From positions 1-44,765 of IMG/VR virus record IMGVR_UViG_3300020152_000001: a stretch of DNA of 44,765 nt; one strand, 5' to 3'. Positions within the stretch are counted from its first letter, which is position 1; each line of letters opens with the position of its first letter. The translations under genes and the position numbers were made by a program. Below the pieces are notes generated by a model. It saw nothing but the letters and a program-made list of their open reading frames with translations, had not been told where the DNA came from and did not search any database. The DNA is from a virus. Lineage: Duplodnaviria > Heunggongvirae > Uroviricota > Caudoviricetes. Below, piece by piece: positions 6,097-9,661 of the stretch.

Positions 6097-6378
6097 AATG
6101 CGCCGGGTTCTGTTGCCGGGCCCCGGCGGCCCCGCTCCGCGCCCTTAGGCCGCGCGAGCAAACTCTTGGTTGTCGTTCGCAGTTGAACGCCACCTGCCCC
6201 GCGCCTGTCGATACCTACTTCGCCCCCATCACCTACCCACCGAACACCCTCCACGGGTCCGGGGTCGTGAGGCCCCTGGCGGCCCCGAGTCACGAATGGG
6301 CCGGCCGATGAGTATGTGGTGGAGGCGGCGGGTGCCGCCCCCGCGTCCAGACACAAAGCCCTCGCTTTCGCAAGGAGC
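6097..6378 (-). ncRNA. ssrA: circularly permuted two-piece tmRNA: acceptor piece ~6378-6317, IVS 6316-6228, coding piece 6227-~6097
   Basis: ...GACGCGGGGGCGGCACCCGCCGCCTCCACCA precedes GGGGGCGAAGTAGGTATCGAC; the two form a 7-bp acceptor stem with G3.U70; tag frame 6180-6145 after CAACT reads ANDNQEFARAA-stop. Confidence 0.93.
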
Positions 6379-6381
6379 CGT

Positions 6382-6411
6382 GATGTAAGCATGCCTTACG
6401 CTTGATGTCAA
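6382..6411 (-). promoter_or_regulatory. tmRNA promoter
   Basis: TTGACA-N15-GCTTACATC, close to the Caulobacter housekeeping promoter pattern; CGTAAG in spacer. Confidence 0.75.
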
Positions 6412-6674
6412 GCGTGTTTGCGGCGCGGAATAAAACCGTCGCTGACTTTTATCGCGACGCTGCCTTTCAGCGAGTGGACCTTCGGCGCTTCTGGCGTGCC
6501 GGCCGCGACAGCAACTTCGGCGATGCCAGCGGCGTCGATCGCGCCTTCGGAGATCAGCCTTCGCGCTTCGACGATGTCGACGACGCGAACAGGCGACAGG
6601 CGGCCGTTGTCGAGACGGCGGAGTAGGCGAAAGCGCCCGGCGCGGGCGCGGCTGTGTTTGATCGTCAGACTCAT
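6408..6674 (-). CDS. hypothetical protein (88 aa)
   Basis: ATGA overlap with the thyA stop. Confidence 0.65.
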
Positions 6675-7552
6675 TTGCTCACGGGCGCTTTGATCGTTGG
6701 GTGTGGCTGGTAGCCTACGAGGTTGAAGTCTTCGAAGACGAAGTCGTCGATGTCCTGGCGTGTTGGGTTGATGATCATCTCCGGCGCCTTGCGAGTTTCG
6801 TCCCAGCGGCTGAGTTGAAGTCGCGCCTGATCGAGGTGGTTCTCGTACAGATGGCAATCGCCGATCGTATGGACGAACTCTCCGGGCTCAAGGTGGCAAA
6901 TCTGTGCGATCATCATCGTCAGCAGCGCGTAGCTCGCGATGTTGAACGGAACGCCTAGGAAGAAGTCACCGCTGCGCTGATACAGATGGCAGTTCAGCTT
7001 GCCTTCCTGAACGTAGAATTGGAAGAGCACGTGGCACGGCGGCAGCGCGACATCGGCGAGATCGTCGGGGTTCCAGGCCGTGACTATGTGCCGGCGGCCG
7101 TGTGGGTCCTTCTTGATGCCGTTGATCACGCGCCAGAGCTGGTCGATGCTCTGCTGTCCCCAACAACGCCACTGCTCTCCGTAAACGGGTCCGAGGTCGC
7201 CGTTCTCGTCTGCCCACTCATCCCAGATCGTGACGCCGGCTTCTTGCAGGCTGCGGACATTGGTCTCGCCGCGAATGAACCAGAGGAGTTCGTGGATGAC
7301 GGACTTCAGATGCACACGCTTCGTCGTCAGCAGCGGAAAGCCTTTGTCGAGATCGAAGCGCATCTGCGGCGCGAAGATCGAGATCGTCGGGCCGTTGCGG
7401 GTCTCGGCGCGGACGCCGCGCTCCAAGATCAATTCCAAGACGCGGAGATACTCGTCGTCGAAGACGTTGGTGCAAGGAGATGGGATCGAACCACCGACCA
7501 CAGCATTATCGGTGCTGTGCTCTACCGCTGAGCTATCCTTGCTCGAAATCAT
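6671..7552 (-). CDS. thyA: thymidylate synthase
   Basis: [43 protein letters not shown] motifs; start uncertain because a tRNA overlaps the 5' end. Confidence 0.95.
7468..7542 (-). tRNA. tRNA-Ile(GAT) nested in the thyA frame, with C33
   Basis: GCAAGGA...TCCTTGC-A-CCA; GCTC/GAGC D-stem; CAGCA-CCGATAA-TGCTG; GGTGG-TTCGATC-CCATC. Confidence 0.9.
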
Positions 7553-9499: not shown

Positions 9500-9618
9500 C
9501 TGCCATTGCCGCCCCGGCAGGGACCTGTAACTCATGGTGAGCAGGACCTAGAAGCTCGCCTGGGATTTCGTTCCCCGGGGTTAGAAACGCGGAAAATCTT
9601 CCCCGTTCTCCGTAGTCC

Positions 9619-9661
9619 TGGTGCCGCGTTGACACCCACCTAAAGGCCGGCGTTACCCGGC
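9619..9661 (-). ncRNA. minihelix-like element ending in ACCA
   Basis: GCCGGGT/ACGCGGC-A-CCA with one mismatch, enclosing one hairpin; 3' end identical to that of tRNA-Leu (ACGCGGCACCA). Confidence 0.4.

Follow-up and report, generated by a model that had tools for sequence, protein, structure and literature searches.

A conserved minimal two-piece tmRNA that lacks pseudoknot 1, apparently restricted to viruses

A tailed-phage genome, available as a complete IMG/VR virus record of 132,731 bp that has direct terminal repeats, encodes a real, conserved minimal tmRNA in which pseudoknot 1 (PK1) is absent; this form of tmRNA is apparently restricted to viruses. The window that we analysed, of 44,765 nucleotides, is the first 44.8 kb of that record. 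In our reading, to which we assign a probability of roughly 0.7, the gene specifies a functional tmRNA of the phage's own, which is circularly permuted, belongs to the alphaproteobacterial type and represents a naturally minimized form.

The gene lies on the minus strand and has the circularly permuted, two-piece organization of alpha-type tmRNAs. Two Rfam families match it, each by a narrow margin, namely RF01849 (alpha_tmRNA), at 52.4 bits (threshold 50; E 7e-12) with an alignment that covers the tRNA-like part alone, and RF04321 (tmRNA_permuted), at 50.7 bits (threshold 47) over the span 6369 to 6145. ARAGORN called no tmRNA at the locus. Besides scores above the Rfam thresholds, the gene shows the permuted order, the tRNA-like domain, the tag reading frame and the 3' pseudoknot expected of an alpha-type two-piece tmRNA; PK1 is missing. 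An earlier note on this DNA had placed the tmRNA at 6145-6227. These positions do delimit the stretch from G1 to the stop codon, but the whole gene extends from about 6411, at the promoter, to about 6100. The same note was silent on the permuted, two-piece gene order, which is apparent both from Rfam and from the sequence itself. The features of the gene, from its 5' end, are:

6383..6411, minus strand: candidate promoter, TTGACA (6411-6406), a 17-nt spacer and TTACAT (6388-6383), of presumed function
6360..6375, minus strand: 5' hairpin of the acceptor piece, CCUUGC-GAAA-GCGAGG (helix 11, the pk4 remnant), which folds at -9.7 kcal/mol
6317..6359, minus strand: rest of the acceptor piece (helix 2 3' strand, GAC, T arm, acceptor 3' strand, ACCA), from Rfam alignments and cofolding
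6359-6348, minus strand: helix 2 3' strand, GCUUUGUGUCUG, in the acceptor piece
6344-6328, minus strand: T arm, from Rfam alignments and cofolding
6327-6321, minus strand: acceptor 3' strand, CGCCUCC
6320-6317, minus strand: encoded ACCA
6228..6316, minus strand: intervening segment of 89 nt, whose ends pair and extend the acceptor stem; presumably removed, as in known two-piece tmRNAs
6208..6227, minus strand: start of the coding piece, with the acceptor 5' strand GGGGGCG (G1 = 6227) and the D-loop analogue AAGUAGGUAUCGA
6196..6207, minus strand: helix 2 strand of the coding piece, CAGGCGCGGGGC, recovered by cofolding and in the precursor fold
6181..6195, minus strand: linker of 15 nt, AGGUGGCGUUCAACU, at the usual place of PK1, with 3' end AACU and an A at -4
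6145..6180, minus strand: tag reading frame of 11 codons plus TAA, encoding ANDNQEFARAA (resume codon GCG, 6180-6178; stop, 6147-6145)
6134..6159, minus strand: helix 5, GCUCGCGC / GCGCGGAGC, whose loop holds the stop codon; it folds, and L129 is alike
6102..6132, minus strand: single 3' H-type pseudoknot, with S1 GGGC/GCCC, S2 GCCGGG/CCCGGC and loop 3 GGCAACAGAA

Cofolding of the two pieces and folding of the precursor each recover the 5' hairpin, the 12-bp helix 2, the T arm, the 7-bp acceptor stem with its G3.U pair (the alanine determinant), a stem in which the two ends of the intervening segment pair, helix 5, whose loop carries the stop codon, and the 3' hairpin. The Rfam alpha consensus includes the loop motif GCAACAGAA of the 3' pseudoknot. 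In energy the fold does not surpass shuffled sequences (z = -0.63), and thus the structural support comes from homology and covariation, not from energy. In a related viral contig, referred to here as L129, the acceptor piece is identical at 43 of 43 nt and TTGACA-N17-TTACAC stands in the position equivalent to the candidate promoter; a strict sigma-70 scan did not call the candidate promoter at 6383..6411. In alpha-type tmRNAs, pk4 is reduced to helix 11 (PMC1168896). The RF04321 alignment would instead pair GAAAG (6369-6365) with CGUUC (6189-6185); we rejected this pairing in favor of the GNRA-capped hairpin, because L129 and another viral contig, L141, carry different hairpins at that place (GCGAC-GUU-GUCGC and CCGGUGC-UUCG-GUGCCGG, respectively). 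The intervening segment is conserved in L129 except for insertions of 10 and 98 nt. The longer insertion (L129:8874-8971) repeats the last 15 nt of the segment (CGGUGGGUAGGUGAU), after which comes a degenerate copy of the opening of the coding piece (GGAGGCGUAAUUCGAUCC); the G1 junction has thus been partly duplicated in tandem.

The absence of PK1 follows from the dimensions of the coding piece. From G1 (6227) to the resume codon (GCG at 6180) there are 47 nt, as had been counted before, compared with 84 nt in the Rfam alpha consensus. In Caulobacter crescentus the resume codon is at nt 82, an 81-nt spacing, with pk1 at A47-70 (PMC1168896), and according to a review the coding piece of a two-piece tmRNA typically holds PK1 and PK2 (PMC3985003). 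About 43 nt are missing relative to the tmRNAs of Sphingobium phage Lacusarx and a Mesorhizobium phage, and in the Rfam alignment the model positions from helix 2 to the resume codon are deleted. Helix 2, with the pairing proposed in the earlier note, comprises 12 bp, including five G.U pairs, and has a duplex energy of -15.9 kcal/mol. It leaves a linker of 15 nt (6195-6181), in which PK1 cannot form. A search for H-type knots upstream of the resume codon at normal stringency found none; the finder has low sensitivity (it recovers a knot in only 22 of 57 canonical genes), and our argument against PK1 is therefore the lack of room, not the result of the finder. The earlier proposal of a streamlined tmRNA with no space for PK1 thus holds, given the short linker and the failed search for a credible knot.

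This tmRNA is not a one-off. The alpha-type 5'-end pattern occurs in at least 120 IMG/VR contigs. Among the matches listed, the distance from G1 to the resume codon is 80-88 nt in most (66 contigs), 57-66 nt in 19, 47-48 nt in 12 and 94-114 nt in four, and in 19 the resume codon was not found. A pattern specific for the short spacing matched 53 other IMG/VR viral contigs with 45-48 nt, some of them inside records of 81-147 kb. The same pattern, applied to one genome each of 185,579 prokaryote species, matched two contigs, of which one is 100% identical to an IMG/VR contig and the other is 78-86% identical to IMG/VR contigs over 4.5-6 kb. Both sit in metagenome-assembled genomes of Verrucomicrobiota, in which, to our knowledge, an alpha-type two-piece tmRNA is not expected. 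Because of this, and of their identity to IMG/VR contigs, we read both as probably mis-binned viral contigs. The pattern fixes the 5' motif and an ANDN or ANDD tag start, and a bacterial clade with a divergent start would escape it; within that scope, the short form appears to be confined to viruses. A metagenome scan with the GC-rich start motif gave one match, which lies inside a coding region and was judged to be due to chance.

The contigs with 57-66 nt form a second reduced class (L044, L039, L060, L107 and 15 other loci, among the matches listed), several members of which lie inside phage records of 150-183 kb. These genes keep a long helix 2 and apparently have only about 17 nt before the resume codon; a knot was found in 0 of 17, with a finder that recovers 22 of 57 canonical genes.

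The short-spacing sequences fall into an AT-rich marine group and a GC-rich group. In the 39 unique marine sequences, all acceptor-stem and T-arm pairs are kept, and G3.U is invariant (39/39). Helix 2 shows compensatory exchanges between A-U and U-A at two positions (22:17 and 33:6), and S1 of the pseudoknot switches between A-U and G-C (19:19). The marine linkers are 11-12 nt long, A-rich and unstructured, and end in UAAAU or UAACU. The GC-rich group has three members, namely the window, L129 and L141, two of which are close, so that covariation within it is thin. L129 is collinear with the window, at ~70-81% nucleotide identity over ~10 kb; its tag reading frame differs by one synonymous change and encodes the identical tag, and between the two the tmRNA gene is better conserved than the flanking protein genes. 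L141 has no nucleotide-level relationship to the window and realizes the same plan with other sequences, namely a hairpin capped by UUCG, a helix 2 of 11 bp formed by a different complementary pair at the equivalent place, a 14-nt linker with an AACU end, and GGCCAGC/GCUGGCC as S2. That is, S2 differs in sequence and yet is complementary in each of the three. Judged from these alignments, the short class is under selection for structure.

The portal protein groups the phage with the large Lacusarx-like siphophages of Alphaproteobacteria, at 38-46% amino-acid identity. These relatives comprise Lacusarx and phages of Erythrobacter, Ruegeria, Rhodobacter and Mesorhizobium, with the phiCbK-like phages more distant, and their hosts belong to the Sphingomonadales, Rhodobacterales, Hyphomicrobiales and Caulobacterales. 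Because the portal relatives span these four orders, there is no foundation for treating the C. crescentus tag as the host tag, as had been done in the earlier note, and Caulobacter as the host is unsupported. When the tmRNA gene and its surroundings were compared with cultured phages by BLAST, only a 41-nt match in the T arm and a match to thyA were returned; a marine representative (L054) returned none. Neither SmpB nor ClpP was found in the phage genome. Pfam showed no HslV-like protease in the RNA island; the sole PF00227 match, of 9.6 bits, lies at 65.7 kb.

In the phage tRNA/RNA island, positions 9536-9644 (minus strand) give a full-length Rfam match to the Rhizobiales sRNA Atu_At1 (69.1 bits; threshold 60), i.e., to a bacterial sRNA family in a phage, which is a possible hint of the host. 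Directly upstream of the tmRNA gene and on the same strand, positions 6671-7552 encode the thymidylate synthase ThyA (PF00303, E 1e-113). The tmRNA of Pelagibacter ubique likewise adjoins a thymidylate synthase gene, thyX (PMC2704228); the shared neighborhood is probably a coincidence.

The gene resembles C. crescentus ssrA (RF01849/RF04321; PMC1168896) in its permuted order, acceptor stem with G3.U, T arm, inter-piece helix 2 and helix 11 hairpin, and also in a tag that begins ANDN and ends AA, in the placement of the stop codon within helix 5, and in the GCAACAGAA loop of its 3' pseudoknot. It differs in being phage-encoded and in lacking PK1, with a G1-to-resume spacing of 47 nt instead of 81-84, a coding piece of ~130 nt instead of 213, a reading frame of 11 codons instead of 13, and Arg instead of Val at position -3 of the tag. 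The 11 cultured phages of the same portal group (among them Lacusarx, PMC5648845, Mesorhizobium phage Cp1R7A-A1, the Erythrobacter, Ruegeria and Rhodobacter phages and the phiCbK-like phages) carry a permuted tmRNA in nine cases. Unlike the gene in the window, all nine have 83-106 nt before the resume codon, and the cultured relatives have an extra hairpin after the stop and no SspB. The marine myophage Melnitz and the pelagimyophages (PMC9004378) likewise bear a permuted alpha-type ssrA behind an early promoter; the Melnitz tmRNA, which among those of phages is the two-piece tmRNA described best, has, in contrast to ours, 82 nt before the resume codon and a recognizable PK1 region, and PK1-less forms are not described in PMC9004378. 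In Melnitz (L190), an element at 800-850 that is annotated within the 'SsrA' feature and has been described as a glutamine riboswitch lies downstream of the 3' pseudoknot, outside the functional tmRNA.

Five of the cultured relatives, namely Lacusarx, two Erythrobacter phages and the Caulobacter phages Ccr34 and C2 (L180, L182-L185), share a tag start, NDNDVV, that is unlike the tag of the window. The two Erythrobacter phage tmRNAs have an apparent GUC (Val) resume codon after the conserved UAACU. The occurrence of NDNDVV across hosts of different orders suggests a phage-specific tag lineage.

Because the cultured relatives keep 82-106 nt, the loss of PK1 is, on this comparison, derived, and it probably occurred at least twice. 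An unusual start signature, GAAGUAGG, is common to the tmRNAs of the window and of Lacusarx. Among the marine sequences, L042 (430-830; 81 nt, with a PK1 region) and L099 (7300-7660; 47 nt) are near-identical genes set apart by two matched deletions, one of 34 nt in the coding piece, which removes the outer part of helix 2 and PK1, and one of 9 nt in the acceptor piece. The GC-rich and marine groups construct helix 2 in different ways, as a continuous 12 bp accompanied by the 5' hairpin in the GC-rich group and as 6+6 bp without the hairpin in the marine group, and the simplest reading is therefore one of two independent losses that would have converged on 45-48 nt. The short form in the window would accordingly have arisen by deletion from the PK1-bearing tmRNA of a Lacusarx-like phage, in parallel with an independent loss in marine phages.

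The tag encoded by the gene, ANDNQEFARAA, is atypical in carrying Arg three residues from its end, and here the earlier note was right. Among 77 unique alpha-type tags, the residue at -3 is Leu in 64, Ile in five, Ala in three, Val in two, Gln in two and Arg in one; this single tag is the one common to the window and L129. With 11 codons, compared with the usual 13-14, the reading frame is also among the shortest. The (A)ANDN start, which has the sequence of an SspB-type adaptor site, is kept, as is the terminal AA; the hydrophobic-Ala-Ala end for ClpX (LAA, VAA or IAA) is lacking, the tag ending in RAA. ClpX reads the last three residues of the tag, and the DAS+4 change of these residues abolishes unassisted degradation and makes it dependent on SspB (PMC3064785). 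The RKH loops of ClpX are positively charged (PMC9963277).

Outside the window, the same genome encodes an SspB homologue of 145 aa (G000:60752-61039, minus strand; L165:1402-1839). The protein matches PF04386 at 58-59 bits and the SspB structures of Agrobacterium tumefaciens and C. crescentus with E ~1e-10. After a proline-rich linker it has a ClpX-docking tail, VIRLDTFRKRK, which aligns with VVSLDAFRKK of A. tumefaciens. A word-based search for homologues returned only the protein itself, with no close relative in IMG/VR or in an index of 5.8 billion proteins. SspB is also absent from 40 other tmRNA-bearing IMG/VR records, most of which are fragments (L129 is 13% complete), and from the 11 cultured relatives. 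The co-occurrence of tag and adaptor in a single genome suggests adaptor-assisted degradation of a weakened tag.

Several other readings of the short gene have to be weighed. In E. coli, PK1 is the one tmRNA pseudoknot required, and it is required for tagging; a hairpin can nevertheless replace it there without loss of tagging (PMC3968760), which implies a role in folding or spacing rather than a direct one. The phage RNA might likewise have replaced PK1 functionally, either by a hairpin predicted over the resume codon, CGUUC-AACUGC-GAACG (-9.4 kcal/mol), which is kept in L129, or by a 3+4-bp mini-pseudoknot, which a relaxed search gives in the window and L129. The hairpin, however, buries the resume codon rather than preceding it and lacks covariation, and neither L141 nor the marine class, with its A-rich unstructured linkers, has it. 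Since it is kept in L129 but absent elsewhere, we assign it no role. The mini-pseudoknot we rejected on energy, as its stems are close to zero (+0.2 and -0.4 kcal/mol) and its formation would require the opening of 7 bp of helix 2. A functional replacement of PK1 is thus rather improbable. The E. coli requirement for PK1 also lends some weight to the idea that the RNA is a decoy or inhibitor, which would bind host SmpB, AlaRS and EF-Tu, be unable to tag without PK1 and thereby damp host trans-translation. There are precedents: the tmRNA of mycobacteriophage DS6A, which consists of the tRNA domain only, inhibits endogenous tmRNA in E. coli (PMC11915505), and the authors of the Lacusarx study proposed that the phage tmRNA counteracts host tagging (PMC5648845). 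A decoy, however, needs no reading frame, and yet the tag frame, the A at -4, the stop codon in the loop of helix 5 and the AA end are all kept. Moreover, the sole change in the frame relative to L129 is synonymous, and all 56 short-class loci in which a stop was found keep a frame of the form ANDN/ANDD...AA/VA. We regard a decoy as improbable, and a little more so than a replaced PK1.

Genes for tmRNA are common integration sites of prophages, and fragments of them occur in phages, so that one might also take the locus for a relic of a host tmRNA gene in decay, or for a fragment of one from an integration site. The gene described here is, however, complete, has its own conserved promoter, lies within a 132.7-kb genome with direct terminal repeats, and is better conserved than its protein-coding neighbors; a relic is very improbable indeed. 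A different kind of objection concerns the tag alone. With a residue at -3 that is unique among the 77 tags, where Leu, Ile, Val, Ala or Gln is the rule, and given the effect of the DAS+4 change and the positive charge of the ClpX loops noted above, Arg could block both ClpX and ClpA, in which case the tag would be no degron and rescued proteins would be released but spared. It counts against this that the tag retains its terminal AA as well as its AANDN start, that a polar residue, Gln, occurs naturally at -3, and that a phage SspB-like adaptor with a ClpX-docking tail would be pointless for a tag that is no degron, if the tag is its substrate. We therefore think it unlikely that the tag is no degron.

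The reading that we prefer, i.e., that of a working minimal tmRNA, would proceed as follows. A precursor RNA would be transcribed from the single promoter, and the tRNA-processing enzymes of the host would excise the 89-nt intervening segment. The products would be an acceptor piece of ~60 nt and a coding piece of ~130 nt, joined by the acceptor stem and the 12-bp helix 2. Host AlaRS would charge the tmRNA via the G3.U pair, and host SmpB and EF-Tu would deliver it to stalled ribosomes; as the phage lacks SmpB and ClpP, the SmpB, AlaRS, EF-Tu, processing enzymes and proteases would have to be those of the host. Translation would resume at GCG (6180) and append AANDNQEFARAA. The 15 single-stranded nucleotides, about as long as the strand that normally follows PK1, would tie the resume codon to helix 2 and keep the A at -4. 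With PK1 deleted and the resume codon tethered by this single strand, setting of the frame presumably depends on SmpB and the upstream stretch alone. Tagged proteins would most likely still be routed to host ClpXP, because the AANDN start (the SspB site) and the AA-COOH end (the ClpX site) are both kept. Arg at -3 probably weakens direct binding to ClpX, and the phage SspB-like adaptor may compensate for this.

The two halves of this scheme have experimental counterparts. Mutants of E. coli tmRNA in which PK1 is exchanged for a hairpin (Tanner 2006, reviewed in PMC3968760) are alike in showing that tagging can do without a pseudoknot as such; they differ in being laboratory constructs with a stable structure at the site, whereas most of the short class has no replacement. 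The engineered DAS+4 and SspB system (PMC3064785) resembles the phage pairing in its intact SspB site, weakened ClpX end and co-supplied SspB. The phage pairing, by contrast, is natural; it is deduced from co-occurrence in a single genome, and the weakening of the ClpX end by RAA is supposed. A stronger version, in which the two form a matched pair, the PK1-less tmRNA writing a deliberately weakened RAA tag and the phage SspB deciding whether and when tagged proteins reach host ClpXP, is a speculative proposal that we consider unlikely. If true, it would be the natural counterpart of the engineered DAS+4/SspB switch.

Two-piece tmRNAs of phages have already been published for Melnitz, Lacusarx and the phiCbK-like phages, and the tmRNA database holds 79 phage entries. 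Loss of PK1 has been reported previously for Oenococcus oeni, for the chloroplast of Pavlova lutheri (from a partial sequence) and for a mitochondrial tmRNA. An exact-phrase search of open-access text found no description of a PK1-less two-piece class. The role of PK1 is still debated, between direct contact with the ribosome and an aid to folding. A natural PK1-less form in 54 viral records, probably of more than one origin, argues that PK1 is dispensable. The RNA totals ~190 nt in its two pieces and sets the minimum for the spacing from G1 to the resume codon at 45-48 nt, and so offers structural and mechanistic studies a minimal scaffold that is ready for use. As the odd tag and an SspB are encoded by one phage genome, it can be tested directly whether phages redirect the fate of rescued proteins. 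Finally, the apparent confinement of the short form to viruses suggests that phages have selected for small, fast-made rescue RNAs.
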